Shown: one piece after another, positions 17,453 to 46,411 of the stretch | How the letters are laid out: every line of letters starts with the position of its first letter | Position numbering within the stretch: position 1 is the stretch's first letter | Notes under the pieces: generated by a model | The model's database searches: none | Told to the model about the DNA's origin: nothing | The model's input: the letters and a program-made list of their open reading frames with translations, nothing else | Made by a program: the position numbers and the translations under genes | Assembly (NCBI GenBank): GCA_963851265.1 | Contig: CAWKNZ010000008.1 | Coordinates: forward strand, 64,001 to 128,000 | DNA: 64,000 bases | Direction: 5' to 3' | Origin: an uncultured Gemmatimonadales bacterium | GTDB lineage: Bacteria; Gemmatimonadota; Gemmatimonadetes; Gemmatimonadales; Gemmatimonadaceae

Positions 17453-17480
17453 TACAGCAGCGCGGGCGCGCAGCTGTCAT
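17453..17480 (-). promoter_or_regulatory. Candidate ECF promoter ATGACA-N16-GCTGTA upstream of tssL-tssM
   Basis: Matches the bipartite motif shared by 10 T6SS-locus upstream regions; exact 16-nt spacer. Confidence 0.55.
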
Positions 17481-18904
17481 CACGATGGGAGCAACACCGC
17501 GAGTTCGAGTGCTGCCCCCGGCAGCGCGTCGGCCGGGACGTAGACGCCGATCTCGCGCGTGTCCTGGAGCCCCTTCGCGCACGGCCCCGCCAGCGCGAGC
17601 TCGAAGTACGCGAGCCCGGGTCGCGGCGCGAGCCCGGCCGGCGCGGCGGGCACGTGGTCGACCGCCATCCCGGGGTACGCGCGCCGCACGAGTTCGAGCA
17701 CGTACTTGCTCGCGCACGCCTTGATCAGCTGCGGCACCCGCGCGCTCAGTTCGGCGGCCGGCAGCGCGGCGCTCACGCCCAAGAACCAGCGTGCGCCCGC
17801 GGCGAAGCAGCGCGGGTCGGGCACCACCGCCGCATGCAGGATGTCGGACACGGCGCGGAGCGGGATGATCACGGCCGACGCGGCGACCACCACGTCGAGG
17901 TGCGCGCGAAGGTGACGCTCGAGCGCCCCGAAGCAGCCGGTGAGGTCGTCGTGCGCGTACGCCGGCAGCTCCCCCGCGGACGCGGTGAGCGAAAACGTGC
18001 AGAGCGCGCCGGCGAGCCGCACGAGCTCGAGCCAGAGGCGCTCGGGGTGGACGTGCCGGACGGCGGCGAGGTGCCGAAGGGGGGCCTCCGCCGACCGCAC
18101 CGCGTGAAGCAGCCACCGCGTCGCGAGTTCATTCCCCGCGTACGCCGACGGCTCGCCGCCGGTCGCGGGTGAGGACGCCGTGGGCAGCGTCGCGGCGAGC
18201 GCGGCGCCCTTGGCCTCCAGCATCCCAATCACCGTGCGGAGTAGCCCGACGAGCCGCGCGCTCGCGCTGTACGTGAGGCACGGCGGCACGTACTCGACGT
18301 CGACGACGAAGCGGCCCGCGCCGTCGCGTGCGACCCGGCCGACCGGGACCGACACCGCGCCCTCCGGCACCTCGCCGTCGAGCGCGAGGCGCAGCCGCTT
18401 GACGGCGAAGCGGACCGGCGCCGCGTCGCGCCCGGACGCCTCGTCCGCCACGTCGCGCGTCACCGCCTGGTACCGCGGGTCGGAAGCCCCGCCGTCGGGC
18501 GAGGTTCCGTTCGGCCCACTTCCGTGGAGCGCGCCCGACGCAGCCTCCACGTCGGCCACGTTCGCCGCGCCGGAGCGCCACGCGGGCAGGACCAGGTGCA
18601 CGACGTGCGCGTCCCGCACGGGGGAGAACCGCTCGGCCAGGGCCACGGGTGCGGGCGCGGGGTCGGCCTCGGGGACGTCGAACGGCGTGCCGTCGGGCAG
18701 GAGCCCGCGCGCGTGCGCGAGGGCGAGCGTTCCGTTCGCGAGCGCGCCCGGGTCCAGCGCCGCCGCGGTCACCCCCCACGCGAACGGGAAGACCGCCTCG
18801 AGCGTGCGCGCGACCGTCGCCTCGTGCTGGCGCCGCTGCGCCTGGAAGTGATGCGGGGCCAGGTACATGCCTTCGTACCAGGCCACGCGCGCGGGCGCGG
18901 TCAC
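17480..18904 (-). CDS. tssK: T6SS baseplate subunit TssK (paralog 1)
   Basis: VAWYEGMYLAPHHFQAQ, GLLPDGTPF, YVPPCL, HPERLW...LAGALCTFS, YAHDDL, GLAYF, GVYVP. Confidence 0.93.
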   Translation of the reverse strand: MTAPARVAWYEGMYLAPHHFQAQRRQHEATVARTLEAVFPFAWGVTAAALDPGALANGTLALAHARGLLPDGTPFDVPEADPAPAPVALAERFSPVRDAHVVHLVLPAWRSGAANVADVEAASGALHGSGPNGTSPDGGASDPRYQAVTRDVADEASGRDAAPVRFAVKRLRLALDGEVPEGAVSVPVGRVARDGAGRFVVDVEYVPPCLTYSASARLVGLLRTVIGMLEAKGAALAATLPTASSPATGGEPSAYAGNELATRWLLHAVRSAEAPLRHLAAVRHVHPERLWLELVRLAGALCTFSLTASAGELPAYAHDDLTGCFGALERHLRAHLDVVVAASAVIIPLRAVSDILHAAVVPDPRCFAAGARWFLGVSAALPAAELSARVPQLIKACASKYVLELVRRAYPGMAVDHVPAAPAGLAPRPGLAYFELALAGPCAKGLQDTREIGVYVPADALPGAALELAVLLPS

Positions 18905-18929
18905 GGCCTCGGCCCCCCTGACGCGGCGC

Positions 18930-18957
18930 GTGACCGCGCCCGCGCGGACAACCGGTA
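18930..18957 (+). promoter_or_regulatory. Candidate ECF promoter GTGACC-N16-CCGGTA upstream of ORF 19015
   Basis: Motif match with 16-nt spacer, about 57 nt before the ATG. Confidence 0.65.
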
Positions 18958-19014
18958 TTTCCGAGTGCAGCGCACGGCCTCCGCGGCCTCCCCGCCCTTT
19001 CTCGCCCCGCCCCG

Positions 19015-20445
19015 ATGTCCGACCACGCCTCGTCGTCCGACCACGACCTTGCCCGCCGCTACCGCCTGCTCGACATCGCCGCCGAGGGCGGCGGCGTGCG
19101 CAGCCGCCATGCGGAGGAGTTCACGACGGGGCGGACGGTGATGGTGCACGAGGTCGACGGGGTGAGGCCGGCGGTGGTCGAGCGGTTGGGAGAGCAGATC
19201 GGGCGACTGCTCCCGGCGGACAGGAGGCTGGTGCTCGAGACCGCGGCATTCCCCGCGGGCTTCGCCATAGTTACCGAATTTCTCCCCGACCTCGCGTCAT
19301 TCCCTGCGTGGCTCGACGCGCGGGTGCGGGGCGCGGACCGCGCGCGCTCGGCGGAGCCCGACGGTTCCCCCGTCGCGATGGAGTTCTACGTCGGCGCGCC
19401 GGCACCGGGCGGCGCGGCCGCGGCCCCCGCAGCCGCGGGGGCCGGCGAGTTCACCCGCCTCTTCGTGCTCGGCGGCAAGGTCTCGTTCGAGCCGGCCGCG
19501 GCCGGAGCGGCGGGGCCTGAGCGGGCGCGTCCCGCGTCCGACCCAGCACGGTCCGATTCGATCGACGCGGCCGTGGTGCCGGCACAGCCCCCTGCCCCGG
19601 CGCCGCCCGTCGCGTCGGTGCCGGCGCCGGTGGTACCAGTCACACCACCACTCGCCGCGGGCGAGTTCACCCGGCTGTTCAACGCGTCCACGCCGGCGCC
19701 GGCGGGCGTCGGGGCCGCGTCGCCGCTCGTGCCGGCGGGCCCGCCGTCACCCGCACCGCGGCCGCCCCGCGCCGACGTCGCCGATGGGCTGCCGGGTGCG
19801 CGACACGCCCCCGCGGCGGGACCGGACGCCCCGTTCGCGCCGCCGCCGTTGCAGCCGACGCCCGCGTCGCCGATGGTGCCGGCCCAGGCGCCGCGCCCGA
19901 CGACCCCGCATGCCGCGGCAGCACCGCCGTACGCGGGCGGCGGGGCGACCGGAGCGCTCGCGGCGCGTGCCGTTCCGCCGGAGGCGCTGGCCGACCCGCT
20001 CGCCGCGTTCGCCGCGTTCGTGGCCCCGCCGGCAGGGATCGCTCCGCCCGCCGCGGCGTGGCGCCCCGCGGAGGCGGTGGCGTCCGCGGAGGGACTCCCT
20101 CCGGCCGCGGTGGGGGGCGTCGCGCGCGGACCCGCGCCGTTCGCGCCCGCCGTCGCGCCGCCGTCGGCGAGCGCGGGCCCGAGCGATTACACCCGCCTGA
20201 TCCGGAACGCCGTCGCGCCACCCCCGCCCGCGCGCGCGCGGCCCGCGTCGCCCGACGCCGCCGTGTCGCCCGTGCGGTTCCCGCTCCGCCTGGTGGTCGC
20301 GGTCAACGTCGCCCTGCTGCTCGCGGCGGCGATCGTCCTCTACTTCGCGACCCGCCCGCCGCAGCCGGCGGGGAGCGGCGCCCCGGGTGCAGCGCCTAAC
20401 GGGGTGCCGAACGCCCCGCCGACCGTGGCCGCGCCCCGCCGGTAG
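19015..20445 (+). CDS. T6SS-associated membrane protein: degenerate kinase N-lobe + Pro/Ala-rich region with GEFTRLF repeats + C-terminal TM
   Basis: RYRLLDIAAEGG...GRTVMVH...IVTEFL..LASF..WL resembles Hanks subdomains I-V only; GEFTRLF x2 and SDYTRLI; TM LVVAVNVALLLAAAIVLYF. Confidence 0.7.
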   Translation: MSDHASSSDHDLARRYRLLDIAAEGGGVRSRHAEEFTTGRTVMVHEVDGVRPAVVERLGEQIGRLLPADRRLVLETAAFPAGFAIVTEFLPDLASFPAWLDARVRGADRARSAEPDGSPVAMEFYVGAPAPGGAAAAPAAAGAGEFTRLFVLGGKVSFEPAAAGAAGPERARPASDPARSDSIDAAVVPAQPPAPAPPVASVPAPVVPVTPPLAAGEFTRLFNASTPAPAGVGAASPLVPAGPPSPAPRPPRADVADGLPGARHAPAAGPDAPFAPPPLQPTPASPMVPAQAPRPTTPHAAAAPPYAGGGATGALAARAVPPEALADPLAAFAAFVAPPAGIAPPAAAWRPAEAVASAEGLPPAAVGGVARGPAPFAPAVAPPSASAGPSDYTRLIRNAVAPPPPARARPASPDAAVSPVRFPLRLVVAVNVALLLAAAIVLYFATRPPQPAGSGAPGAAPNGVPNAPPTVAAPRR

Positions 20446-20470
20446 CGCCGGCCGGCGAGCGGCGCGCCGA

Positions 20471-21877
20471 TCACCGCAGCGCGATCACGAGCTCCAGGCG
20501 CGCGTCCACCAGCTCGGCGGGCACGTACACCGCGAGCGTGCGCGCGCGTGCGACCGCGTCCCACGCCGGCCCGGCGCGCCGCAGCGCGAAGTACAGATAG
20601 TCGAGCTTGACCGGCACCGCCGGCGGCGGCTGCGGGACGTGCGCCAGCTCCATCCCGGGCAGCGCCTGGCGGATGAGCGTGTCGACCACGTCGGCCGAGC
20701 CCACCTTGCAGCCGGTCAGCACGCGCGGGACGAGCTCGGCCTGACGCAGCGGCGAGCGGACGGCGAGGTACCACTGCGGCGCCGCGAGCCACGCCTCCTG
20801 CTCGATCGCGACCGCCTGCACGGCGGGACGCACCGGGCGCAGCGGGAGCGAGACCGCGGTTTCGGGCACTGCCGCGTCGAGCAGTTCGAGCAGTCGCGCC
20901 TCGAGCTGGCCGAAGCACTCCCCGAGTCGGACGTGCTCGTAGGCCGGCAGCGCGGGGGGTTCGGGCGCGAAGGTCGAGAGCGCGCCCGCGAGCGCGACCA
21001 TCGCCTCCCAGAGCTCGGCCGGGTGCCCGCCGCGCACGTCGGCGAGGTGGCGCAGGCCGGGCAGGTGCGTGTTGAGCGTGTAGAGCAGCCAGAAGCTCGC
21101 CACGTCGGTGACGGAGAAGTCGGCGAGCCCCTGGTTGCGCTGCCGCCGCGCCCCGGCGAGCGACGCGCCCTTGGCCGCGACGCGCGCGGCGAGGCGCTGC
21201 GCGAGGGCGCCGAGGGCGTCGCTCGCCGTGAGCGTGAGGACCGGCGGGACGAACGCACGGTCGAGCGCGTACTCGCCGGCCTCGGAGCGGACGAGGCGCG
21301 CGACCGGGAGCGTGGTGTAGCCCTCGGCCGGCTCGCCCTCGAGCAGGAGGCGCAGGTTGGCGCGCGCGACCTGGATGGGGCGCTCGCCGAGCCCGGTGTT
21401 CTCGTCGCGGACGAGTTGCTCGTCGGCGCGCCAGCGGGCGGCGCTGGACGTGCCGTTGGCGCCGCCGGTGGCGTGCGGGCCGGCACCGGCGCCGTCACCG
21501 GAGGGAGCGACCGGCGCGCCCGCCACGTTGCGCGTCGCCGGGCGGTACTCCGGGACCGCGAGGTGGACGAGCAGGGCGCGCTGGTCCTGGCCCCACGCGG
21601 ACGCGAGCGGTCGAGGGGGTGGTAGCGGGTCGGCGCCGGGCGCGTCGAAGAGCAGCCCGTCGGGGAGCCGGCCGGCGACCGCGGTGACGACGAGCGTGCC
21701 GCCCGCGAGCGCGGCGCGGTCGACGGCGACTCGCGAGAAACCCCACGGGCAGAAGGTGAGGGCCGCGAGCTGGAAGCGCAGCACCTCGTCCAGGTAGCGG
21801 TCCTGGGCCTGGAGGTGCTGCGGGGTGAGGAGCGTGCCTTTGGTCCAGAGGACCGGGGCGAGCGCGGGCGTGGGCAT
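20471..21877 (-). CDS. tssK: T6SS baseplate subunit TssK (paralog 2)
   Basis: VLWTKGTLLTPQHLQAQDRY, GRLPDGLLF, DENTG, FVPPVL, HPAELW...LAGALSTF, DYLYF, AVYVP; start ATG 21877. Confidence 0.93.
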   Translation of the reverse strand: MPTPALAPVLWTKGTLLTPQHLQAQDRYLDEVLRFQLAALTFCPWGFSRVAVDRAALAGGTLVVTAVAGRLPDGLLFDAPGADPLPPPRPLASAWGQDQRALLVHLAVPEYRPATRNVAGAPVAPSGDGAGAGPHATGGANGTSSAARWRADEQLVRDENTGLGERPIQVARANLRLLLEGEPAEGYTTLPVARLVRSEAGEYALDRAFVPPVLTLTASDALGALAQRLAARVAAKGASLAGARRQRNQGLADFSVTDVASFWLLYTLNTHLPGLRHLADVRGGHPAELWEAMVALAGALSTFAPEPPALPAYEHVRLGECFGQLEARLLELLDAAVPETAVSLPLRPVRPAVQAVAIEQEAWLAAPQWYLAVRSPLRQAELVPRVLTGCKVGSADVVDTLIRQALPGMELAHVPQPPPAVPVKLDYLYFALRRAGPAWDAVARARTLAVYVPAELVDARLELVIALR

Positions 21878-21889
21878 ATGACCAGATAT

Positions 21890-21917
21890 TACCGGAGGCC
21901 CGTGGCGAGCAGATCGA
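21890..21917 (-). promoter_or_regulatory. Candidate ECF promoter TCGATC-N16-CCGGTA upstream of tssK paralog 2
   Basis: Motif match with 16-nt spacer; -10 element ends 12 nt before the ATG (near-leaderless). Confidence 0.6.
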
Positions 21918-21948
21918 GTCGACCGTAATTCATCTCGGGCACGCCCCC

Positions 21949-21976
21949 GTGATCCATCCGCCACCGTGGATCGGTA
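21949..21976 (+). promoter_or_regulatory. Candidate ECF promoter GTGATC-N16-TCGGTA upstream of the effector island
   Basis: Both hexamers identical to the copy upstream of tssB. Confidence 0.7.
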
Positions 21977-22030
21977 TCCACGGGTGAGCGCCACCGCCCG
22001 GCCTGCCGGGCCAACCGAGCGGAGCCGAAC

Positions 22031-22468
22031 GTGCGCAACAGAGCCAATCCGGTGCTCGTCGTGTTGGGACTTCTGGCGCTCGCCTGGGCGCTCACGATGT
22101 TGAAGCCGATGCCGCAAGGCGCCGTGCTCGTGGCCGTCGCTGCCGCGCTCGCCGTCGAACGCTGGGCGCCCCGACGGGCCCGGCCGGCCACCTTCGTGTC
22201 CGTCGCGTCGCTCGCGGCGCTCCTGGGGTACGTGATCGCCGGGTCGGAGCTGCTCGCGCACGCTCAACGCTGGCTGTTCCCGGCGCCCCGCCGCGTGATG
22301 CCGCTCTTCGCCCTCGTCGTCGGGGCGAGCATCGGCGCCGGGTTGTTCGTGTGGACGTTCATCTCGGTCATCCGGCCGCTGGCCCGGCTCGACGTCACGC
22401 GGCGCACCGGCCTGGTGGCGATCGGCGCCACCGGCGTCCTGGCCTGCGGGTTGGACGCGCTAGCCTGA
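22031..22468 (+). CDS. Small multi-pass membrane protein, unknown function
   Basis: 4-5 hydrophobic segments in 145 aa; first gene after the motif at 21949. Confidence 0.6.
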   Translation: MRNRANPVLVVLGLLALAWALTMLKPMPQGAVLVAVAAALAVERWAPRRARPATFVSVASLAALLGYVIAGSELLAHAQRWLFPAPRRVMPLFALVVGASIGAGLFVWTFISVIRPLARLDVTRRTGLVAIGATGVLACGLDALA

Positions 22469-22495
22469 CGCGCTCACAACTCACCAGGACCAACA

Positions 22496-23296
22496 ATGGC
22501 GTTCCCTCAGCCGCAGACTCCCGTCGCTCCGAGGGTCCCCGTCGCCCCGAGGACTGCGCAAGACTGGCTCGACGAGCTGGCGAACGGCCGGGAGCAAGCG
22601 TACCCCAATATCAGCCGTTCCGAGGTGGTGAGCGGGCTGCGCGACCGACTTGCGACACCGACGCTCATCGACCAGAAAAACACCAGCCTTTGTGGACCAG
22701 CCGCCCTGATGTACTGTCTCGCGTCGTCGAAGTCGGCGCTTTACGCACAGTACGTCGCGGAACTCTACGCGACCGGCCACAGCACGATCGGCCGGTTGAC
22801 GGTCGCGCCGGGCGCCGGTTGCAAGGCGTACAGGGCCACCGCGGCGAGCGGGATTCACCCCGTCGACTGGGTGACCCTCGCGAGCCTGCGCGACTCGGAG
22901 AACGATGCGTTCGACTACGACGCCCCGAGCTGCGAGGTCGGCGGCATCACGATGCCGGACGACCTCGTCGACTGGTTCAAGGACGTCGGCTTCAGCAAGG
23001 ACGCCAACGTCACCAATCTCGTCTTCACAAAGGACGAGGCCACGCTCACGGCCGCGGGCGTCCGGCGCAGCCATAGCCACCACGTCTGCCTGTTCATCAG
23101 CGCGAACATGCTGCAGAGCCCGCACGAGTCGTCGTGGACGCCCGACCACTGGGTGGTCCTCGCGTCGCCGGTGACGGTCGGAAGTGGGCGCGCGAAGTTC
23201 AGCGTCTTCACCTGGGGCGGCGTGCAGTCGGTCGACCAGCCGGTCGGCGATTTGTGCGAGAACTTCTACGGTTACGTCTCGAGTTCCGCAGCGTAG
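22496..23296 (+). CDS. Papain-fold cysteine protease/deamidase-like protein, candidate T6SS effector
   Basis: DQKNTSLCGPAA (Gln/Cys), DHWVVL (His), FSVFTWG; no signal peptide; AGGA RBS; lies within the T6SS locus. Confidence 0.7.
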   Translation: MAFPQPQTPVAPRVPVAPRTAQDWLDELANGREQAYPNISRSEVVSGLRDRLATPTLIDQKNTSLCGPAALMYCLASSKSALYAQYVAELYATGHSTIGRLTVAPGAGCKAYRATAASGIHPVDWVTLASLRDSENDAFDYDAPSCEVGGITMPDDLVDWFKDVGFSKDANVTNLVFTKDEATLTAAGVRRSHSHHVCLFISANMLQSPHESSWTPDHWVVLASPVTVGSGRAKFSVFTWGGVQSVDQPVGDLCENFYGYVSSSAA

Positions 23297-23327
23297 CGGG
23301 ATCCACCGCCGCGCGCGTCAGCGTCGC

Positions 23328-23355
23328 GTGATGGGTCGGGGCGCGACCCGCTGTA
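23328..23355 (+). promoter_or_regulatory. Candidate ECF promoter GTGATG-N16-GCTGTA upstream of the PG-binding protein gene
   Basis: Motif match with 16-nt spacer in the intergenic gap. Confidence 0.6.
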
Positions 23356-23442
23356 TACCGCCGTAGCGGGTGCGCGACTCTCGGGGCCGGACCCCACCCC
23401 GCCACAGCCACGCAGCAGGCAGGTAGAGCGGGGACCAACGGG

Positions 23443-24477
23443 ATGGGCGTGCGGACATTACGCGCCGGAAGCAGCGGCGGAGACGTGCGCGCCGTGCAGG
23501 CCGCGCTCAACCGGAACACCACGCTCGACACCGACGGCGTGTTCGGCCACGCCACCCGGGAAGCCGTGATCGCGTTCCAGACCGACCACGACCTGCAGGT
23601 GGACGGCGAGGTAGGGCCGGAAACGCGGCGGGCGCTCTTCCCGCTCGTCGGCCTGACGATCGAGGTCTTCGGGACGCGGATGGGACGCCGCGCGACCGGG
23701 GGGGCGGGGCCGACATTCGAGTTGCCCCCACTCATGCGCCCGTTGACGCTCCCCTCCCTCGTTCCGCCGCTCACGCTGCCCGCCGTGCCCGCGCCGTTCG
23801 CGCCGGGTCCGCCCGCCGGGCTCGGGCCGGTATCGCCGTTACCGCCGCTCTTGCCGCCGCTGCTGCCACCGCTGTCGCTGACCCCGCCTGCGGGGCGGCT
23901 CGTCAGTATTCCAGGACTCGCCGAGCCGATCATGCTTCCGCCGATCGCCACCACGCGGCCCTCGTCGAGCGGGCCGGACTGGCAGCAGGTCGCGCAGACG
24001 CAGCGGCAGTTCAAGAGCCTGTTCAAGGGGCCATTCATGGACAGCTTCGCCGTCGGCGTGCAGAGCGTCTTCCTGCACAAGGACACCGACAACCACGTCG
24101 AACTCACGACGGGGTGCCTGCTCCAGTCCCCGATCGGGTTCACCGACCACCAGGGTAACGATTTCACCCTCGCGTGCTTCGCGCAGGCCACGTGGGTCGA
24201 CCCGATCTTCCACTACGGGATGTTTCACCTCGCGAACCCGTACGCGCAGCTGCAGGCGCAAGGGAATGCGACAGGGCCAGCCCACCCCACGACACAGGTC
24301 GCCGGGTTCCCGGTCAACATCAACGTGGACCTGAACGACGACGGGCTACAACTCAACGCCAGCGCCGGCGCGGTCTGGTCGCTGGCGTTCGAGCACGACG
24401 GCGTGCACAGCACCTGGGGGACGGCGCTCGGGGTGGGGCTGGTCGGCAAGTTCCGCCTGCTCGACGGAGGGCGTTAG
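23443..24477 (+). CDS. Peptidoglycan-binding (PG_binding_1) protein with Pro-rich linker and beta-rich C-terminal domain
   Basis: LRAGSSGGDVRAVQAALN...DGVFGHATREAVIAFQ...LQVDGEVGPETRRAL; amphipathic beta-strands in the C-terminal ~180 aa; no signal peptide. Confidence 0.85.
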   Translation: MGVRTLRAGSSGGDVRAVQAALNRNTTLDTDGVFGHATREAVIAFQTDHDLQVDGEVGPETRRALFPLVGLTIEVFGTRMGRRATGGAGPTFELPPLMRPLTLPSLVPPLTLPAVPAPFAPGPPAGLGPVSPLPPLLPPLLPPLSLTPPAGRLVSIPGLAEPIMLPPIATTRPSSSGPDWQQVAQTQRQFKSLFKGPFMDSFAVGVQSVFLHKDTDNHVELTTGCLLQSPIGFTDHQGNDFTLACFAQATWVDPIFHYGMFHLANPYAQLQAQGNATGPAHPTTQVAGFPVNINVDLNDDGLQLNASAGAVWSLAFEHDGVHSTWGTALGVGLVGKFRLLDGGR

Positions 24478-24533
24478 ACGGCCGACCGCCCACGGCGCCG
24501 GGCGCACGTGATCGGCGGGCACGCAGTCGGCGC

Positions 24534-24561
24534 ATGACGCGCGCGCGGCCGGGATACGGTA
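24534..24561 (+). promoter_or_regulatory. Candidate ECF promoter ATGACG-N16-ACGGTA upstream of the CHAP gene
   Basis: Motif match with 16-nt spacer, about 53 nt before ATG 24615. Confidence 0.6.
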
Positions 24562-24614
24562 TAAACGCGTGCCCGTCCGACACCCGCGACCAGCCCTTAC
24601 CACGGACAAGTCTC

Positions 24615-25559
24615 ATGAGCCACTTCACCAAGCTCGGCGGGGCCGACGCGACCGGGTACGACGCCGGGCGCAGTTTACAAATACTGCCGGCCGGGCGGCG
24701 GACGACCTTCTATCTCGTCGCGGGCGCCAACCTCGAGGTCACAGTCGACGACGACTCGATCGCCGCCCTCAGCGTCGGGAATGACGACGACAAGTCAGCG
24801 CACGGGAGTGGCGCGTTGACCGGGTGGGAGCGATCGCAGGTTCTCCGCAAGGTGGTCCTCACCGCGAAGGCACCCGGCGGCGACACCACGCTGCGTGCGC
24901 TCCTCGGCGCCTCCGATTTCGCCAGGCCGGTCACGATCCGCGTGACAGCCGACCAGAATTGGAGGCAGTGCGGGAACGTGGCGGCCGAAGTCACGCCCGG
25001 GTTGCGGGGGGAATTGCGGCAGATGCCGCTGCGCGACGCCGTCCTTCGGATTGCGGAAGACCAGATGCACAGCACCATCGCGAGCGGATCCGGCTTCGGT
25101 ATCTACCACGCGAACAGCGAGTACAACTGGTGCGGGGCGTTCGTGCACTGGTGTTGGAGTCAGGCCGCCGCGATCAAGGGAGAGGCGAACCCGTTCGGCC
25201 CGAGTAGCGACGTGCTCCTCTCGCCGCAGAAGGCCATTCATTGGGCCATGCGGCCCGAGACGCCCGGCGTGTTGCTCCGTTACCAGGGCCCCGACCCGAT
25301 CACCGGGAAAGGCAGGCAGGAATATCGCGAGATCGGAGACGACGGATGCAGCCTGGAGCGGGGCGACGTCGTCCTGCTCCGCGACGGCAGCGCTACGGGA
25401 TGGAAGCACGTGTGCATGGTCAACCGCGTGGACGGAACGGCGGTCCAAACGATGGACGGCAACCAGGGCACCGGCCAGTGCATCAAGCTCGTGGACCGTA
25501 GCCTGGCCGACCTGCTGCCGGATAAGTCGCCGAAGCTGGCCTTCGTGCACGTGCCGTGA
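24615..25559 (+). CDS. CHAP/NlpC-P60-type cell-wall amidase/endopeptidase, candidate T6SS effector
   Basis: NWCGAFVHWCW (catalytic Cys), RGDVVLL, KHVCMV (His), TMDGNQ; beta-rich N-terminal domain; no signal peptide. Confidence 0.82.
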   Translation: MSHFTKLGGADATGYDAGRSLQILPAGRRTTFYLVAGANLEVTVDDDSIAALSVGNDDDKSAHGSGALTGWERSQVLRKVVLTAKAPGGDTTLRALLGASDFARPVTIRVTADQNWRQCGNVAAEVTPGLRGELRQMPLRDAVLRIAEDQMHSTIASGSGFGIYHANSEYNWCGAFVHWCWSQAAAIKGEANPFGPSSDVLLSPQKAIHWAMRPETPGVLLRYQGPDPITGKGRQEYREIGDDGCSLERGDVVLLRDGSATGWKHVCMVNRVDGTAVQTMDGNQGTGQCIKLVDRSLADLLPDKSPKLAFVHVP

Positions 25560-38399: not shown

Positions 38400-38434
38400 C
38401 GACACTCCTTTAGGACCGGCCTGGTTCTTAGCAG

Positions 38435-39032: not shown

Positions 39033-40046
39033 CTACGGGCTGCTCACGGATTGGAGTGGGGCCACCCACTCGCCCCGCCCTACCTCTCCCTCTTCGACGA
39101 CCGCCAGGAACGCCCGCCGCAGCGGCCGCCCATGCGCCGCCCGCTCCGCGTACGCCTCGCGCAGCTCCGTTAGGCCGTCGCACTCGTAACGGTTGCACGT
39201 GTCCGACCGCAGCGCGCGCGGCAGCGCGCACCCTCCCGGGGTGTGGTACACGCACGACCCGTCCAGCGACGCCGCGGGCAGGTGCGCCGCGTACGCCGCC
39301 GCGGCCGCGCGCACCCCCGCCCCCGGGTGCTCGGCGAACCACCGCCGCAGTGTGTCCGCCGTGAGGTAGGCCCGCTCGCCGCCCATGCGGCAGCAGCGGC
39401 CGCCGCACGCCGCGCAGGCCGCGCCGACGAACGGCGCCTCGCCGGCGGCTGGGGGCGCCGGAGGCGCGCCCGGCGGGGATGCGCCCGGCGGGGGTGCGGA
39501 GGCGCGGGTGTCGAACGCGAGGCGCGCGACCCGGCGCACGTGCGCGCGGAACGCGCGCCCCCGACGCCGCGGCAGGCGCACCGGCGGCGGCGGGCGCGGC
39601 GGGATGAACATCGGAAAGCCGCACGGGTCGGCCGACGGCAGCAGCACCACCGGCGCCTCCGCACGCGCGTCGGGCCCGACGCGCGCGTCCGCGTCGCGGA
39701 GCGCCCGCGCCGCCGCGCCGAGCCGCACGGATGCCTCCGCGGCGATCGCGGCGCGCTGGCGGGCGTGCTCGCGCCCGAGTGTGGCGGCGCGGCACTCCGG
39801 CGTGCCGCAACGCCCCGCGGCGCGCGCCGATGGCGTGTCGACCGCCCGGCCGCACTCGGCGCACGTGACGAGGGCCGGGGCCGTCATGGCGCGGCGTCGG
39901 CACGCCGAGCGGCCGCAGACCGCCACCGCGCACCGCTCCCCCCGCAGGCTGGCGGGCATGGAGAGCGGCGGGGCGCCCGGGGGCACCGGCGCGGCGCAGA
40001 CCGCGCAGGGGGCGCTGCGGGGCGGCGCGTGCGGGGCAGCAAACAT
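39033..40046 (-). CDS. Cys-rich metal-binding protein with C-terminal CxxCxxxCC (YkgJ-like) cluster
   Basis: CAVC, CAVAVCGRSAC, CAECG, CGTPEC, then CAACGGRCC...CVYHTPGGCAL...RSDTCNRYEC; start ATG 40046. Confidence 0.7.
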   Translation of the reverse strand: MFAAPHAPPRSAPCAVCAAPVPPGAPPLSMPASLRGERCAVAVCGRSACRRRAMTAPALVTCAECGRAVDTPSARAAGRCGTPECRAATLGREHARQRAAIAAEASVRLGAAARALRDADARVGPDARAEAPVVLLPSADPCGFPMFIPPRPPPPVRLPRRRGRAFRAHVRRVARLAFDTRASAPPPGASPPGAPPAPPAAGEAPFVGAACAACGGRCCRMGGERAYLTADTLRRWFAEHPGAGVRAAAAAYAAHLPAASLDGSCVYHTPGGCALPRALRSDTCNRYECDGLTELREAYAERAAHGRPLRRAFLAVVEEGEVGRGEWVAPLQSVSSP

Positions 40047-40100
40047 GGGCCTCCTCGGAAAGGGCACGTCCCGCGGCACGGCCGGCCGGGGAGCACGCGC

Positions 40101-40126
40101 CGTCTCGCTATCTCGTCTCGCTATAC
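40101..40126. repeat. 13-bp tandem duplication (CGTCTCGCTAT core x2)
   Basis: CGTCTCGCTATCT 40101-40113 and CGTCTCGCTATAC 40114-40126. Confidence 0.7.
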
Positions 40127-40151
40127 CGATTCGCGACGCCGGGCGCGTCGC
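40124..40151 (-). promoter_or_regulatory. Candidate ECF promoter GCGACG-N16-TCGGTA upstream of the Cys-cluster gene
   Basis: Motif match with 16-nt spacer. Confidence 0.6.
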
Positions 40152-40183
40152 CCGCGATCCGCCCTTCCGGGGCCCACGGCGCC

Positions 40184-40474
40184 GTGATGCCGCCCGTACA
40201 GGGGCTCGGGCGCTTCCACCACTCGGTGTTCGCGCGATTCCGCTTCGCGCAGAACCTGGTGCCAGCCTCGAAGATCCTCGGCGCGCAGGTCGGCGTGCAG
40301 CTGTCGCTGGATCTCATCAAGCACCACCTGACGGGATTCCGCAAACACGCGGTGGGCGGGTGCACAACGCTGCACGACAGCGCGGGCCCGGCCGGCCAGT
40401 CCGTGTTCGGCCAGCAGGGCACGCTGGAGTTGACGTACCGGTTCGAGCTCTGGCAGCCGGGCCAGGGACGCTGA
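40184..40474 (+). pseudogene. Short beta-rich ORF, probable remnant homologous to the C-terminus of the 23443 PG-binding protein
   Basis: By-eye alignment (G.FH, [YF]A, V.[IL].[VL]DL, S.[WF]G, L..[KR]F.L...GR-stop); no clear RBS. Confidence 0.45.
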
Positions 40475-40498
40475 GCGCGGGCGGCACCGGCGGGGGGT

Positions 40499-40526
40499 GT
40501 GATCGGCGCCGCCCCGCTCTCCGGAA
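40499..40526 (+). promoter_or_regulatory. Candidate ECF promoter GTGATC-N16-CCGGAA upstream of the tssH operon
   Basis: Motif match (one mismatch in the -10 element), 16-nt spacer, about 50 nt before the ATG. Confidence 0.6.
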
Positions 40527-40577
40527 TTAGCTCACGCCCGCCGCACGCGCCCCCGCTCCCGCCGCACCCCACGCCGC

Positions 40578-43364
40578 ATGCCGGTCACCCTCCGCGCCCT
40601 CATCGGCAAGCTCAACGCCCCGACCCGCTCGACCATCGAAGCGGCGGCCGGACTCTGCCTCTCGCGCACGCACTACGACGTCGAGGTCGAGCACTTTCTG
40701 CTCAAGGCGCTCGACGCCACCGACGGCGACCTCGCGCAGATCCTGCGGCACTACGGGGTGAACCGCGCGCGGCTCGCCGACGACCTCGCGCGCGGGCTGG
40801 ACCGGCTCAAGAGCGGGAACGCACGCACGCCGGCCCTCGGCCCGCACCTCGTCCAGATGCTCGTCGAAGCCTGGACGATCGGCTCGATCGAGTTCGGGGC
40901 GCCGCAGGCGCGCATCGGGCACTGCGTGCTCGCCCTCGTCTCGCACGACGAGCTGCGCCGCATGGCCGGCGAGATCAGCCGCGAGCTGGAGAAGATCCCC
41001 GCCGACGCGCTGCGCAAGGACTTCGTCGCGGTCACCGCGCCGTCGGCCGAGGCGGCCGCGGAGCTGCGCGGCTCGGACGGCGCAGCGTTAGGCACGGGCG
41101 CGGCGGCGGACGGCGCCCCCCGCCCGCCCGCGGCCGGTGGCCGCACGCCCAACCTCGACCAGTACACCGTCGACCTCACCGCCCGCGCCCGCGCCGGCAA
41201 GCTCGACCCGGTGTTGGGCCGCGACGCGGAGGTGCGGCAGGTGGTCGACATCCTCACCCGCCGCCGCCAGAACAACCCGATCCTCGTCGGCGAGGCGGGC
41301 GTGGGCAAGACGGCCGTCGTCGAGGGCTTCGCGTGCCGCATCGCGGAGGGGGACGTGCCCGAGCCGCTCCGGCACGTCACCCTCCGCACGCTCGACCTCG
41401 CCCTGCTGCAGGCCGGCGCGGGGGTCAAGGGCGAGTTCGAGAACCGCCTCAAGGGACTCATCGAGGAGGTCAAGAACTCGCCGACGCCGGTCATCCTCTT
41501 CGTCGACGAGGCGCACACGATGATCGGCGCCGGCGGGCAGGCGGGGCAGAACGACGCCGCCAACCTGCTCAAGCCGGCCCTCGCCCGCGGCGAGCTGCGG
41601 ACGATCGCCGCGACCACGTGGGCGGAGTACAAGAAGTACTTCGAGAAGGACCCCGCGCTCTCACGCCGCTTCCAGCTGGTCAAGGTCGAGGAGCCGGGGG
41701 AGGAGCAGTGCCTCGTGATGCTGCGCGGCGTGGTCCCGGCGCTCGAGGCGCACCACCGGGTCCGCATCACCGACGACGGGCTCGACGCGGCCGTGCGCCT
41801 CTCGCACCGCTTCCTGCCCGACCGCCAGCTCCCCGACAAGGCGGTGAGCGTGCTCGACACCGCGTGCGCGCGGCTCGCGTTAGGCCAGCAGGCGACGCCG
41901 GCCTCGGTCGAGGCCGCGCGGCGCGAGCTCGACGACCTCGCCGTGCAGGCCCGTGTGCTCGGCCGCGAGGCCGCGCTCGGCGCCGACCACGGCGAGCGCC
42001 TCGGGGCGATCGCGGCGCGGCGCGCGGAGCTGGACGCGCACCTCGCCGCGCTGACCGAACGCTGGAACGCGGAGAGCGCCCTCGTCGGCAAGGTGCGCGC
42101 GCTGCGCGCCCGGATCGAGGACGGGGCGGACGACCTCCCCGCCTTACGGGCAGAGCTCGCGGCGCGGCAGACGGCGCTCGAGGCGCTCCAGGGCGAGACC
42201 CCGCTCGTGCGCGTCGCGGTCGACGCGTCGATCGTCGGCGAGGTGATCTCGGGGTGGACCGGCGTCCCCGTCGGCAAGATGCTCCGCGACCAGCTCGGCC
42301 TCATGCTGCAGCTCGAGCGCCGCCTCGGCGAGCGCATCATCGGGCAGGACCACGCGTTGGGCGCGGTCAGTCGCCGCGTGCGCACCTCGGCGGCCAAGAT
42401 CGAGGACCCCAACAAGCCCAAGGGCGTCTTCATGCTCGTCGGCCCCTCGGGCGTCGGCAAGACCGAGACGGCGCTCGCGCTGAGCGACCTGCTCTACGGC
42501 GGCGAGCAGAACCTCGTCACCGTCAACATGAGCGAGTTCCAGGAGGCGCACACCGTCTCCACGCTCAAGGGCTCGCCGCCCGGCTACGTGGGCTACGGCG
42601 AGGGCGGCGTGCTCACCGAGGCCGTCCGGCGCCGCCCGTACTCGGTGGTGCTCCTCGACGAGGTCGAGAAGGCGCACCCCGACGTGCTCGAGCTGTTCTT
42701 CCAGGTGTTCGACAAGGGCGTGCTGGAGGACGGCGAGGGGCGGCAGGTCGACTTCCGCAACACGCTCATCCTGCTCACGACCAACGCGGGCACGGACACG
42801 ATCATGAAGCTGACGGCGGACCCCGAGACCGCGCCCGCGCCCGACGCGCTCGCCGCCGCGCTCAAGCCCGAACTCGACCGCGCGTTCAAGCCGGCCTTCC
42901 TCGGCCGCATGGTCGTGGTGCCCTACCTCCCGGTGCGCGACGAGCACCTCCGGCGCATCGTCCGCCTCAAGCTCGGGCGGATCGCGCGCCGGCTGCGCGA
43001 GACGCACGCCGTCACGCTCGCCTACGACGACGCGCTCGTCGACGCCGTGGCCGCGCGCTGCACCGAGGTGGAGAGCGGCGCGCGCAACGTCGACCACATC
43101 CTGACCAACACCATGCTCCCCGAGCTGTCGCGCCTGCTGCTCGAGGCGGCCGGCGCGGGCACGCGGCCGGGTGCGTTGCGCGTCGGCGTGGACACGACCG
43201 GCGAGCTGACCTACGCGGCGGGCGACGGCGCACCGTCCGCCGGGGCGACGCCAGACGGGGCGACGAACGACCCCGCGTCCGAAGCGGCCGACGTCCGCGC
43301 GGCGGTGCGCGACCCCGGGTACTCGGTCGCGCCGCCCGAGGCCGCGCCGCTGGCGGCCCGGTGA
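40578..43364 (+). CDS. tssH: T6SS AAA+ ATPase ClpV/TssH
   Basis: ClpV N-terminus (LIGKLN...AAAGLCLSRTHYDVEVEH), RRRQNNPILVGEAGVGKT, GPSGVGKTETA, NMSEFQEAHTVS. Confidence 0.97.
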   Translation: MPVTLRALIGKLNAPTRSTIEAAAGLCLSRTHYDVEVEHFLLKALDATDGDLAQILRHYGVNRARLADDLARGLDRLKSGNARTPALGPHLVQMLVEAWTIGSIEFGAPQARIGHCVLALVSHDELRRMAGEISRELEKIPADALRKDFVAVTAPSAEAAAELRGSDGAALGTGAAADGAPRPPAAGGRTPNLDQYTVDLTARARAGKLDPVLGRDAEVRQVVDILTRRRQNNPILVGEAGVGKTAVVEGFACRIAEGDVPEPLRHVTLRTLDLALLQAGAGVKGEFENRLKGLIEEVKNSPTPVILFVDEAHTMIGAGGQAGQNDAANLLKPALARGELRTIAATTWAEYKKYFEKDPALSRRFQLVKVEEPGEEQCLVMLRGVVPALEAHHRVRITDDGLDAAVRLSHRFLPDRQLPDKAVSVLDTACARLALGQQATPASVEAARRELDDLAVQARVLGREAALGADHGERLGAIAARRAELDAHLAALTERWNAESALVGKVRALRARIEDGADDLPALRAELAARQTALEALQGETPLVRVAVDASIVGEVISGWTGVPVGKMLRDQLGLMLQLERRLGERIIGQDHALGAVSRRVRTSAAKIEDPNKPKGVFMLVGPSGVGKTETALALSDLLYGGEQNLVTVNMSEFQEAHTVSTLKGSPPGYVGYGEGGVLTEAVRRRPYSVVLLDEVEKAHPDVLELFFQVFDKGVLEDGEGRQVDFRNTLILLTTNAGTDTIMKLTADPETAPAPDALAAALKPELDRAFKPAFLGRMVVVPYLPVRDEHLRRIVRLKLGRIARRLRETHAVTLAYDDALVDAVAARCTEVESGARNVDHILTNTMLPELSRLLLEAAGAGTRPGALRVGVDTTGELTYAAGDGAPSAGATPDGATNDPASEAADVRAAVRDPGYSVAPPEAAPLAAR

Positions 43365-43398
43365 ACGGTCGGCGCCCGACCCGCCGGGTGCGGACCCG

Positions 43399-45360
43399 AT
43401 GAGCACCGCGGCGGGCGCGGTCGCGCAGGCGGGGCGCCCGGCCACGGCGGCGACCCCCTTAGGCGGTGACGCGCTCGTCGTGGTGCGCGTCGCCGGCACG
43501 GAAGAGCTGAGCCGCCCGTTCCTGTTCACCGTGGACTTCGTGTCGCGCGAGGGCGGCGTCGCGCCCGCGGCCCTGCTCGGCAAGCCGATGGCCCTGTCGT
43601 TCGAGCTGCCCGAGGGGGGCGCGCGGCCGGTGCACGGCCTCGTGCGCCGGTGGACGGCGCTCGGGTCCGCGGGGCCCGCCGGGCTGTTCCGCTACCGCGC
43701 GGAGCTGGTGCCGTGGGTCTGGATGCTCTCGCTCTCGAGCGACTGCCGCACCTTCGAGCGCCAGTCGCCGCTCGACGTGATCGAGGCGGTGTTCACGCAG
43801 GCGGGCTACCACGACTTCCGCCGCCGGGTCGCGTCGCCGCCGCCGGTCGCGCCCTACGTCGTGCAGTACGACGAGACCGACCTCGCCTTCGTCTCGCGCC
43901 TGCTCGAGGACGCCGGGCTGTACTACACGTTCGAGCATTCGGCGGACAAGCACACGCTCGTGCTCACCGACGCGCGCGGCGGGGCGGTGCCGGCCGGGCA
44001 GGTCGCGTCGGTGCCGATCGTCGGCCCCGAGCCGCACGGCGGGAACGCCGGCGACGTGGCGAGCGTGCCCAACGCGATCACCGGCTTCGAGCGCGACTAC
44101 GTGGTGCACGCCCGCGCCGTCGCGTTAGGCGACGCGCACCTGCTGCGCGCCGCGGACCGCGGTTCGTCGACCAGCGACCGCCCGGGTGCCGCGGGAGAAC
44201 GCTTCGCCTTCCTGGGCGACCTGGACGGCACGCCCGAGGCGGGGGTCGCTGCCGCGCGGGCGCGCCGCCGGATCGAGGCCGAGGAGGCGCTCGGGGACGT
44301 GGCGCACGGCACGTCGAGCTGCCCCGGGCTCGCGGCGGGCACGCGCGTCACCGTCACCGGCGGCCCGCACGGCGCCGCGGGCGCGGACTACCAGATCGTG
44401 CGCGTCACGCACGCGCTCGAGATCGGCGACGTGGCCGCGGGCGGCGGCCTCACGTCCAAGTACGAGAACACGTTCACCGCGATGCCGGCGGCCACGCTCT
44501 ACCGCCCCGCGAGCGTGACGCCGCGCCCCGCGGTGCGCGGCACGCAGACCGCGCTCGTCGTCGGCGCGGGGGGCGCCGGACAGATCGACGTCGACGCGCA
44601 CGGCTGCATCCTGCTGCAGTTCCCCTGGGACCGCGGCGCGGGCAAGGACGGCCGCTCGCAGCACCGCGTGCACGTGGCGTCGGTCTGGTCGGGCACGGGC
44701 TGGGGCGCGGTCCAGCTGCCGCGCCTCGGGCAGCGCGTGCTGGTCGAGTACCTCGGCGGCGACCCCGAGCGGCCGATCGTCACGGGCCGGGTGTACACGA
44801 GCGACAACGCGCACCCGTACGGCCTGCCCGGGAGTAAGACGCAGAGCGGCATCAAGACCCGGTCGGTCGGCGGCGGGGCCGACAACTGCAACGAACTGCG
44901 CTTCGAGGACAAGCAGGGCGACGAGCACGTCTACCTGCAGGCCGAGAAGGACCTGCAGGTCCACGTCAAGCACGACGAGACGCGCGAGGTGCTCAACGAC
45001 CGCACGGCCACGATCACCAACAACGAGACGCTGACCGTCAAGCAGGGCGACCGCACCGCGACCGTGGAGATGGGCAACGACGCGCTCGCGGTCAAGATGG
45101 GCAACCTCACGATCGGCGTGTCGCTCGGGAACGTCTCGATCAAGGCCGACGTCGGCAGCATCACGCTGGAGGCGTTGCAGGGGGTGACGCTCAAGTCGGG
45201 CCCGATGAGCTCGCTGCAGGTCACGCCCGCCGGGATCACGGTCAAGGGCGCGATGGTGAGCCTGGAGGGCCAGGTGACGGCGCAGATCAAGGCGCCGATG
45301 GTGCAGGCCAGCGCCGACGCCATGCTCATGGCCAAGGGCGCGATCACGATGATCGGCTGA
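43399..45360 (+). CDS. vgrG: T6SS spike protein VgrG (no toxin extension)
   Basis: EELSRPF, VQYDETDLAFVSRLLE..G.YY.F, GTQTALVVG, FPWDR, LPRLGQ.V.VEY..GDPERP, SGIKTRS, NELRFEDK, QAEKD, gp5-like C-terminal repeats. Confidence 0.97.
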   Translation: MSTAAGAVAQAGRPATAATPLGGDALVVVRVAGTEELSRPFLFTVDFVSREGGVAPAALLGKPMALSFELPEGGARPVHGLVRRWTALGSAGPAGLFRYRAELVPWVWMLSLSSDCRTFERQSPLDVIEAVFTQAGYHDFRRRVASPPPVAPYVVQYDETDLAFVSRLLEDAGLYYTFEHSADKHTLVLTDARGGAVPAGQVASVPIVGPEPHGGNAGDVASVPNAITGFERDYVVHARAVALGDAHLLRAADRGSSTSDRPGAAGERFAFLGDLDGTPEAGVAAARARRRIEAEEALGDVAHGTSSCPGLAAGTRVTVTGGPHGAAGADYQIVRVTHALEIGDVAAGGGLTSKYENTFTAMPAATLYRPASVTPRPAVRGTQTALVVGAGGAGQIDVDAHGCILLQFPWDRGAGKDGRSQHRVHVASVWSGTGWGAVQLPRLGQRVLVEYLGGDPERPIVTGRVYTSDNAHPYGLPGSKTQSGIKTRSVGGGADNCNELRFEDKQGDEHVYLQAEKDLQVHVKHDETREVLNDRTATITNNETLTVKQGDRTATVEMGNDALAVKMGNLTIGVSLGNVSIKADVGSITLEALQGVTLKSGPMSSLQVTPAGITVKGAMVSLEGQVTAQIKAPMVQASADAMLMAKGAITMIG

Positions 45361-45379
45361 GCCGGGGGAGCCCCTCCGC

Positions 45380-46063
45380 ATGCCCGCCCTCACCTGGCTC
45401 CGCGAGCGCGCCGCGCTCGACGCCGCCGTCCCCGACGCCGCCGACCCGGGGCGCCTCGCCGAGGCGCTGGTCGCGGGCGGAGAGCTGGCGGCCGCGCTCC
45501 GGCTCACGGCGTGCGCGCTCCCCCCGCGCGAGGGGGTGTGGTGGGCGCTCGTGGCGGCGCGCCGCGCGCAGCGGACGGCCGCGCGCGTGGGGGCCGCGGG
45601 CGACGCCGGCGCGCTGGCGGGCGCGGCGCGGGAGGCCGCAGCGCTCAAGGCCGCCGAGCGCTGGATCGCGGAGCCCACCGACGCGCACCGGCGCCAGGCG
45701 TGGGACGCCGCGCAGGCCGCGGGGCTCGAGACGCCGGCGGGCGGGGCGGCGGCCGCCGCGTTCTTCGCGACCGGCAGCCTCGCGCCGGCGACGAGCCCGA
45801 TGGCCGTGGCCCCCCCGCCCGGCGCGCACGCGACGCTGGCCGCCGGCGCGGTCCTGCTCGCCGCCGCGCGCACCAGCCCGGCACGTCTCGCCGAGGCCGT
45901 CGGCGAGTCCGTGGCCCAGGGCGCCGAGATCGCGCGCCGCCTGGGCGGCTGGGACGCCGCGGCGGCCGCCGCGCGCCGGCACTTCGAGGCGCAGGCCGAG
46001 GCGCACGCCGAGGCCGCGCGGCCGCCAGCCCCGCCCGGGGTGCCGGCCGCCGGGGGGGCCTGA
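45380..46063 (+). CDS. DUF6931-type T6SS-associated protein
   Basis: ACALPPREGVWWA...AERWIAEPTDAHRRQA...AAFFATGSLAP...AGAVLLA; located between vgrG and PAAR. Confidence 0.75.
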   Translation: MPALTWLRERAALDAAVPDAADPGRLAEALVAGGELAAALRLTACALPPREGVWWALVAARRAQRTAARVGAAGDAGALAGAAREAAALKAAERWIAEPTDAHRRQAWDAAQAAGLETPAGGAAAAAFFATGSLAPATSPMAVAPPPGAHATLAAGAVLLAAARTSPARLAEAVGESVAQGAEIARRLGGWDAAAAAARRHFEAQAEAHAEAARPPAPPGVPAAGGA

Positions 46064-46065
46064 GC

Positions 46066-46359
46066 ATGGGCCTCCCCGCGGCGCGGATCACCGACATGCA
46101 CGTCTGCCCGATGATCACCGTGCTCGTGCCGCACGTCGGCGGCCCGATCGCGGTCCCGGGCGCGCCGATGGTGCTCGTCGCGGGCCTGCCCGCGGCCACG
46201 GTCACGAGCATGTGCGTCTGCGTCGGCCCACCCGACCTGATCGTGATGGGCTCGACCTCCGTGCTCATGGGCGGGATGCCCGCCGCCCGGCTCACGAGCC
46301 TGACGGCGCACGGCGGCACCGTGGTGTTCGGCGCGCCCACGGTGCTCGTCGGGCCGTAA
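46066..46359 (+). CDS. PAAR-domain spike tip protein
   Basis: MGLPAARITDMHVCP...PHVGGPI...PAATV..CVCVGPPD...PAARL...TAHGG. Confidence 0.95.
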   Translation: MGLPAARITDMHVCPMITVLVPHVGGPIAVPGAPMVLVAGLPAATVTSMCVCVGPPDLIVMGSTSVLMGGMPAARLTSLTAHGGTVVFGAPTVLVGP

Positions 46360-46383
46360 CCCCCGCCCCGCCCCCTTCCCCCG

Positions 46384-46411
46384 GCGATCGGTTCGAGCGC
46401 GTCCGCCGGTA
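46384..46411 (+). promoter_or_regulatory. Candidate ECF promoter GCGATC-N16-CCGGTA upstream of the T6SS kinase
   Basis: Motif match; -10 element ends 9 nt before ATG 46421 (near-leaderless). Confidence 0.6.

Follow-up and report, generated by a model that had tools for sequence, protein, structure and literature searches.

The stretch of DNA analysed here, referred to as the window, comprises 64,000 nucleotides from an uncultured Gemmatimonadales bacterium (G000:C8:64001-128000, where G000 is the genome under study), and all coordinates given without a contig name are window positions. The G000 assembly consists of 4,601,510 bases (4.6 Mb) in 12 contigs with ~75% G+C, and the named relatives of the window's proteins all belong to the Gemmatimonadota, the nearest named one being a Gemmatirosa sp. 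metagenome-assembled genome. The window carries a complete type VI secretion system (T6SS) gene cluster at 13088-46359 (~13.1-46.4 kb, not assigned to a single strand), in which Pfam assigns tssM, tssL, two tssK genes, tssB, tssC, hcp, tagJ/ImpE, tssA, tssE, tssF, tssG, tssH, vgrG, DUF6931 and PAAR. The tssB operon reads tssBC-hcp-tagJ-tssAEFG, and an insert at 22-28 kb contains effector-like PG-binding, CHAP and GH19-like genes. Next to the cluster lie the genes of two Hanks-type Ser/Thr kinases, STK1 (46421-48907, plus strand; assigned by Pfam, with a zinc ribbon from residue 9) and STK2 (48904-50775, minus strand; Pkinase, 1.2e-39). STK2 is directly downstream of the gene of an extracytoplasmic function (ECF) sigma factor of the TIGR02999/PF07638 type (ECF43-like; 50885-51490, minus strand; Pfam, 2e-41). 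Our subject is a two-box sequence motif that recurs upstream of most operons of this locus; its nature as a promoter is strongly supported, and the sigma factor is the candidate for its reader.

The original prediction listed ten two-box strings, and all ten are present at the coordinates and on the strands it gave, with their hexamers 16 nt apart. We scored each site with a cross-genome matrix built from 13 sites of G001 and G003 only, two genomes of the same genus as G000 (a third congener is G004; the G003 assembly is fragmented). The best copy, GTGATC-N16-TCGGTA at 29483-29510 (plus strand), lies 69 nt upstream of tssB, scores 26.6 bits and ranks first in the whole-genome matrix scan. It is followed by GTGATC-N16-CCGGAA at 40499-40526 (plus; 20.6 bits) upstream of tssH/clpV (40578), by GCGATC-N16-CCGGTA at 46384-46411 (plus; 17.9 bits), 9 nt before the STK1 ATG (46421), and by GTGACC-N16-CCGGTA at 18930-18957 (plus; 17.7 bits) upstream of orf19015, a copy with an ortholog in G003. 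GTGATG-N16-GCTGTA at 23328-23355 (plus; 16.9 bits) precedes the PG_binding_1 gene (23443-24477), and ATGACG-N16-ACGGTA at 24534-24561 (plus; 16.2 bits) precedes the CHAP-domain gene (24615-25559). Upstream of tssL (start 17425), ATGACA-N16-GCTGTA at 17453-17480 (minus; 16.6 bits) has its -35 box directly adjoining the tssK1 stop codon, and orthologous copies precede tssL in both G001 and G003. GTGATC-N16-TCGGTA at 21949-21976 (plus; 15.9 bits), upstream of orf22031, is one of the genome's four intergenic matches to the strictest of the patterns defined below. These eight sites score 15.9-26.6 bits. The remaining two are doubtful because of their low scores in the same matrix: TCGATC-N16-CCGGTA at 21890-21917 (minus), 12 nt before the tssK2 ATG (21877), reaches only 9.8 bits, and a loose pattern gave no copy in the tssK2 upstream region of G001; GCGACG-N16-TCGGTA at 40124-40151 (minus), upstream of orf39033 (39033-40079), stays below 9 bits, with a good -10 box and a poor -35 box. 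A genome-wide pattern listing brought out an eleventh copy that was absent from the original list, GTGATC-N16-CCGGTA at 50840-50867 (minus; 18.1 bits), located between the stop codon of the sigma gene (50885) and the start of STK2 (50775). Every one of the eleven sites is oriented toward the next gene, and the gap from the GTA box to the start codon measures 9-87 nt.

Frequencies were determined with a strict (GTGAYC-N16-YCGGTA), a tight (TGAY-N18-CGGTA) and a loose pattern (GAY-N18-CKGTA). Within the window, the loose pattern matches 13 times, against 3.27 +/- 1.72 in 100 dinucleotide shuffles (0/100 reach 13), and the tight pattern 5 times, against 0.35 +/- 0.64, with no shuffle reaching 5. 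For genome-wide tests the locus was taken as window positions 12900-51600, which represent 0.84% of the genome and 0.53% of its intergenic DNA. Intergenic DNA was delimited by an imperfect mask from a purpose-written codon-bias gene caller (3670 genes, 87% coding), which missed most of STK1; this gene was added by hand to later masks. On both strands of G000, the strict pattern occurs seven times, four of them intergenic, and all four of these lie in the T6SS locus. The tight pattern gives 17 matches (11 intergenic; 5 in the locus) and the loose pattern 283 (51 intergenic; 11 in the locus, 10 of which are intergenic). Varying the spacer of the two patterns over k=10-26 revealed enrichment in the locus at one spacing only, with 11 loose and 5 tight matches versus 0-4 and 0-1 at the others. 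In a blind enumeration of 786,432 dyads (4-mer, spacer of 12-23, 4-mer), with 3,017 nt of locus DNA in 15 intergenic segments as foreground and the other 635,972 nt of intergenic DNA as background, GATC-N18-GGTA came second (5 versus 12; binomial 1.4e-8, Bonferroni 0.011). The top dyad, CTTC-N23-GAAG, was discarded as chance, being a palindrome counted on both strands at unrelated sites. Finally, the cross-genome matrix yielded 33 matches of at least 15 bits in G000, and 9 of the 11 intergenic ones fall in the locus (binomial 1.8e-19). No longer repeat was found around the motif sites. Taken together, the shuffles, the spacer scan, the dyads and the matrix reject an equal frequency of the motif in shuffled or non-T6SS intergenic DNA, and the motif is almost confined to the T6SS locus.

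Outside the locus, the best intergenic sites are C1:35959-35994 (plus) and C3:188643-188669 (minus). The former precedes an open reading frame (ORF) of 301 aa with weak metallopeptidase-like matches only, the latter a 210-aa ORF with weak nuclease/HNH-like matches that is followed by a 123-aa ORF; both sites could mark orphan effector/immunity genes that belong to the T6SS-locus regulon. The other motif-like sites outside the locus precede ordinary enzymes.

Of the 41 nearest genomes, G000 included, 7 encode TssB, and a phylum-wide sample of 401 genomes contained 37 that do. A tally of the patterns over the 41 genomes was noisy and was used for G001, G003 and G004 only. The T6SS locus of G001 displays copies upstream of tssM, tssL, the STK1-like kinase gene, tssB, STK2 and three unnamed genes, with 4 of the 17 genome-wide tight matches falling there; in G003, copies lie upstream of tssB, the orf19015 ortholog, tssL, tssM and STK2, and 5 of 20 tight matches are on three small T6SS contigs. 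Copies at orthologous positions, with divergent spacers, are found at tssB, tssL and the sigma-kinase junction in three genomes each, and at tssM and orf19015 in two each. The order sigma gene-motif-kinase gene is common to G000, G001 (L002 16056) and G003 (L049 866). The conservation in orthologous clusters that was proposed as a check is therefore borne out, since G001 and G003 share the motif at the same gene positions. Alignment of 24 sites from the three genomes gave the consensus nTGATCGG-N13-TyCGGTAT, with the hexamers 16 nt apart. Several positions that the search did not force are conserved, namely T2 (20/24), C6 (19/24), G7 (18/24), G8 (17/24), T22, T29 and C33 (17/24 each; the background is ~13% T), and a G eight nt past the A of GTA (G36) occurs in 18 of the 24 sites. 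Across these sites conservation covers the boxes and does not extend to the spacers, and in the alignment of the three tssB upstream regions the boxes are invariant. Two variants of the -10 box occur, CGGTA and CTGTA. The T6SS locus of G004, by contrast, is syntenic and lacks a sigma gene over the 47.5 kb fetched, and none of the 28 tight matches of G004 falls in that region, the nearest being 2.8 kb past the fetched end. Across the G004 genome, these 28 matches compare with 4 for a reversed-pattern control, a scattered excess; some of them are word-for-word common to G001 and are probably coding sequence.

The spacing to the start codons bears on how the boxes act. An ATG follows the GTA box after 9-10 nt at STK1 in G000, at tssM in G001 and G003, at tssL in G003 and at one unnamed gene of G001, and the distance is 12 nt at tssK2 in G000. 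At STK1, no start codon of the open frame precedes the one at 46421, and at tssL of G003 the ATG after the GTA box is in frame with the homology. An ATG at 9-10 nt leaves no space for a second -10 box and start, which argues that the boxes themselves position RNA polymerase; from the geometry, a leaderless or near-leaderless STK1 mRNA would be implied.

The motif resembles ECF-type promoters in its unconserved spacer of fixed length, its sense orientation and its short gap to the start codon. Its regulon is small and locus-bound, and a copy precedes a co-encoded kinase gene, with none upstream of the sigma gene. Canonical ECF promoters, of the sigma-E and sigma-W type, combine an AAC-containing -35 box and a CGT-containing -10 box over a 16-17-nt spacer. 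With these the motif shares its pair of short boxes, the rigid ~16-nt spacing, a G/C-rich -10 box with CG(G)T and the very small number of sites per genome; it departs from them in its -35 box, which is TGATC(GG) and not GGAAC-like, and in the lack of a copy upstream of the G000 sigma gene.

Other promoter classes did not fit. Canonical promoters of G000 can be recognised by TTGAC-N18-TAnnnT, which has 43 matches (40 intergenic, 0 in the locus) and a sharp peak at N18. Allowing spacers of 17-19 nt, 0 of the 56 intergenic matches in G000 lie in the locus, and the sigma-70 consensus (TTGACA, 17 +/- 1 nt, TAnnnT) is absent from window positions 16500-30000 and 38000-52200. Judged by eye, the GTA box never provides an A at -11 together with a T at -7 at a 16-18-nt spacer. 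A housekeeping sigma-70 reading was thus rejected, both for the missing consensus matches in the scanned locus regions and for the misfit of the GTA box to a -10 element. A sigma-54 promoter was rejected as well, as no GG-N10-GC register is conserved and the conserved words TGATCGG and CGGTAT stand 13-16 nt apart. Upstream of orf28339, at 29440-29462 (minus), we noted a TGGCAC-N7-GC string in a sigma-54-like register, which is unconvincing and too near the ATG.

The tssB upstream region indicates what kind of element the motif replaces. In the 300 nt that precede tssB, TTGAC is present in all 34 of the other Gemmatimonadota genomes and in 57 of 71 metagenome loci (those with at least 150 nt upstream, out of 80 fetched), usually as GCTTGACA followed 17-18 nt on by a TA-containing box, and it occurs in none of the three motif genomes G000, G001 and G003. 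Conversely, the motif is found upstream of tssB in all three of these and in 0/34 of the other genomes and 0/71 of the metagenome loci. The motif occupies the slot of the relatives' TTGAC-type promoters, and one small clade has exchanged the promoter type at an orthologous position. The claim that the motif is a promoter is backed by its fixed geometry, its conserved boxes, its orientation, the ATG spacing, the tssB slot and the restriction to the locus. A separate observation concerns G005, a member of another genus with an ECF sigma and a kinase near its T6SS. There, in the divergent tssB-tssK2 intergenic region (L013:579-881), the 8-mer AAGTGATC is repeated in tandem at least six times and is followed by several CTGATC words, all ahead of the sigma-70-like promoter of tssB, TTGACA-N17-TAAGCT. 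The word GTGATC equals the -35 box of the motif, and no GGTA box lies at the right distance.

We then considered which protein might read the motif. The locus sigma scores 182.6 bits against TIGR02999 (cut-off 126.15), and its translation carries LSTTGLVHEAYLKL (STTG) at the position of region 2.2 that is normally acidic, an assignment made by eye against the QTTA/STTA consensus quoted in two papers (PMC13147305, PMC8999054). A Hanks-type kinase is encoded at +1 of the sigma gene, a pairing kept in G001 and G003. Among 41 T6SS-bearing genomes searched, orthologs of the locus sigma (72-76% identity) are present only in G001 and G003; the next tier of matches reaches at most 65%, and the best match of G004 shows 61% and is located 1.4 Mb from its T6SS. 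Eleven sigma orthologs of higher identity (77-87%) also exist. An ortholog of at least 72% identity is found in 0/39 other genomes, and the motif upstream of tssB in 0/38. The T6SS locus of G001 contains two ECF sigma/kinase pairs (L001 14747-15205 and L002 15530-16129; 64% and 72% identity), and a motif copy sits at the sigma-kinase junction only for the closer, 72% sigma. No helix-turn-helix (HTH) or AraC-type protein was detected among 32 + 8 locus ORFs (Pfam; E<=0.1 for unannotated ORFs). The proposal that the adjacent ECF sigma reads the motif is plausible on the strength of this co-occurrence of ortholog and motif, which rests on one clade. Related TIGR02999 sigmas were surveyed at 80 loci; matches of at least 13 bits turned up at 10 of them, and only the G003 contig bore a motif at the sigma-kinase junction; a promoter specificity common to the whole TIGR02999 family was rejected on this basis.

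Kinase-associated ECF sigma factors have precedents. In Xanthomonas citri, the T6SS cluster itself encodes EcfK and PknS, and its expression requires both (PMC6653060, PMC7777525), EcfK being an ECF43-type sigma that lacks the acidic patch of region 2.2 and is activated through phosphorylation by the adjacent kinase (PMC13147305). A 2026 review places the AraC-type TagK between this sigma and its targets: TagK is induced by EcfK and in turn binds the T6SS genes and switches them on (PMC13584744). Control of a T6SS by an ECF sigma and a kinase is thus already known. The PknS-EcfK-TagK system, which serves an i3* T6SS, resembles the locus studied here in that an ECF43-type sigma and a Hanks-type kinase are encoded inside the T6SS cluster. 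It belongs, however, to the Gammaproteobacteria, and its structural genes are activated through TagK (PMC13584744), whereas in the Gemmatimonadota genome no AraC regulator was found in the locus and the motif stands directly on the operons. The second precedent is EcfP/PknT of Vibrio parahaemolyticus, an ECF43 sigma activated via phosphorylation by its neighbouring kinase, in which the sequence STTA (PMC8999054) replaces the DAED patch by Ser/Thr residues as STTG does in G000, again with an adjoining kinase gene; the EcfP regulon is a polymyxin response and the G000 motif marks a T6SS locus. For Vibrio and Pseudomonas, the same review describes an alternative sigma, sigma-54 with VasH (Sfa2), that coordinates T6SS operons and auxiliary clusters (PMC13584744). 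Those promoters have -24/-12 elements and depend on an enhancer-binding protein, whereas the G000 motif fits a -35/-10 geometry. For the ECF43 promoter, the literature we found offers only the prediction of Casas-Pastor, GTC at -35 and CAG at -10 (supplement of PMC7826278); a published EcfK or EcfP site may exist in the primary papers. Nothing relevant was found on T6SS and ECF sigma factors in the Gemmatimonadota.

With a probability of about 0.65, we propose that the motif is the core promoter of a small T6SS-locus regulon read by the kinase-gated, ECF43-like sigma at 50885-51490. We infer the identity of the reader, its phospho-activation and the start sites from the sequence. The core promoter would consist of a -35 box TGATCGG and a -10 box yCGGTAT, the hexamers being separated by 16 nt. 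If it behaves like EcfP/PknT and EcfK/PknS, the locus sigma, with its STTG, would be inactive until phosphorylated by the adjoining Ser/Thr kinase STK2. The active sigma would then fire at least nine promoters at once, covering tssL(-tssM), orf19015, orf22031, the PG-binding and CHAP genes, tssB-G, tssH-vgrG-PAAR and both kinases, and the firing of the kinase promoters would create positive feedback. Transcription is predicted to start ~8 nt past the A of GTA, near the conserved G, so that some messages would be leaderless or near-leaderless.

Several observations weigh against this proposal. Two of the ten listed sites are weak by the cross-genome matrix, and no motif copy lies upstream of tssK1 or orf28339. 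Unusually for an ECF sigma, the gene of the locus sigma is not itself preceded by a motif copy. Since sigma and motif co-occur in one clade of three genomes, their association amounts effectively to one evolutionary event, and 79 of the 80 TIGR02999 loci lack the motif at the sigma-kinase junction. Besides the locus sigma, G000 contains two more strong PF07638 sigma genes and weaker ECF-like matches, any of which could be the reader. Finally, TGATC/CGGTA differs from the GTC/CAG predicted for ECF43 (PMC7826278), and in X. citri the sigma acts on the T6SS indirectly, via the AraC regulator (PMC13584744).

Some of these points lead to the alternative that survives best, although we regard it as rather unlikely: the motif would be a genuine core promoter of an alternative sigma, read by one of the two other TIGR02999-type paralogs of G000, which lie at C8:50824-51369 and C2:479980-480522, or by another ECF sigma. 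The sigma/kinase pair of the locus would then have its targets elsewhere or stand higher up in a cascade. The 3 strong and 4 weak PF07638 matches supply candidates for such a reader, the missing motif upstream of the sigma gene deprives the locus sigma of an autoregulation signature, and the two flavours of the -10 box point in the same direction, as does the G001 locus, whose two sigma/kinase pairs show that the assignment of sigma to motif is not one-to-one. Against it, the motif occurs only where the orthologous locus sigma (at least 72% identity) is present, the copy at the sigma-kinase junction is found in all three genomes, and G004 has 16 sigma paralogs (E<=1e-25) yet no motif in its T6SS locus.

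A different explanation, which we consider improbable, takes the boxes as a transcription-factor site, for instance for a TagK-like activator downstream of the sigma, combined with a weak housekeeping promoter. Its model is the X. citri relay from EcfK through the AraC-type TagK to the T6SS genes, as reported in a review (PMC13584744). The two boxes, however, are not repeats of each other, and the five sites with 9-10 nt from GTA to ATG have no space for a separate -10 box and start. Neither the sigma-70-like promoter that such an arrangement would need (none in the scanned regions, 0/56 intergenic TTGAC-N(17-19)-TAnnnT matches in the locus) nor an HTH/AraC domain in the locus ORFs (Pfam, E<=0.1) was found. 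The least tenable idea is that the pattern arises by chance or from base composition, through AT-containing words at the ends of genes in a genome of 75% GC, or that it belongs to a dispersed repeat. This idea can draw on the shortness of the pattern and on the TGA of the -35 box being a stop codon at tssK1, and possibly at the sigma stop in G001 and G003, but is rejected by the shuffles, the spacer scan, the blind dyads and the cross-genome matrix, by the copies at orthologous sites in two other genomes and by the lack of any longer repeat around the sites.

Other features of the locus were noted along the way. Window positions 22000-28300 have a G+C content of 0.68-0.71 versus ~0.75-0.78 around them, and also hold small ORFs; several genes there have their own motif copy, and G001 has no counterpart of the same content. 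The segment resembles an island of effector genes that has entered between tssK2 and tssB. The two tssK paralogs, at 17480-18904 (minus) and 20471-21877 (minus), are divergent (~35% mutual identity), and both are retained in all related loci examined (G001, G004, G014 and G016). The product of orf19015 (19015-20445, plus) is membrane-anchored and Pro/Ala-rich and has no family match. Its conserved N-terminal domain of ~160 aa, 47-49% identical in G001 and G003 and not found in the G004 locus, is followed by a long Pro/Ala-rich region with GEFTRLF repeats and then by a C-terminal hydrophobic helix; it is not a DNA binder. Like the sigma/kinase pair, orf19015 is present only in motif-bearing loci.

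What stands out is the near-confinement of the motif to the locus, the absence of housekeeping-type promoters from the scanned part of it and, as judged from the positions of the start codons, an apparently leaderless geometry at some genes. It is about evenly balanced whether one clade swapped the housekeeping promoters that an entire T6SS locus had ancestrally for promoters of a phosphorylation-gated ECF43-type sigma encoded in that locus, such that a Ser/Thr-kinase signal would switch on machine, effector island and both kinases directly and all at the same time, with no intermediary transcription factor and partly from leaderless messages. Since X. citri already offers an example of a T6SS under an ECF sigma and a kinase, the advance is an incremental and not a conceptual one. 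If true, this reading would supply a natural promoter consensus, drawn from numerous sites, for a kinase-associated ECF sigma, and the motif offers a concrete consensus for an ECF43-type sigma, for which the one prediction found, GTC/CAG (PMC7826278), is vague and different. The shared promoter would tie orf19015, orf22031, the PG-binding and CHAP genes and both kinases to the T6SS. It suggests a simple circuit from kinase to sigma to T6SS in an almost unstudied soil phylum, and the comparison of G000, G001 and G003 with G004 and the TTGAC-type relatives would constitute a natural experiment in the rewiring of a secretion system.

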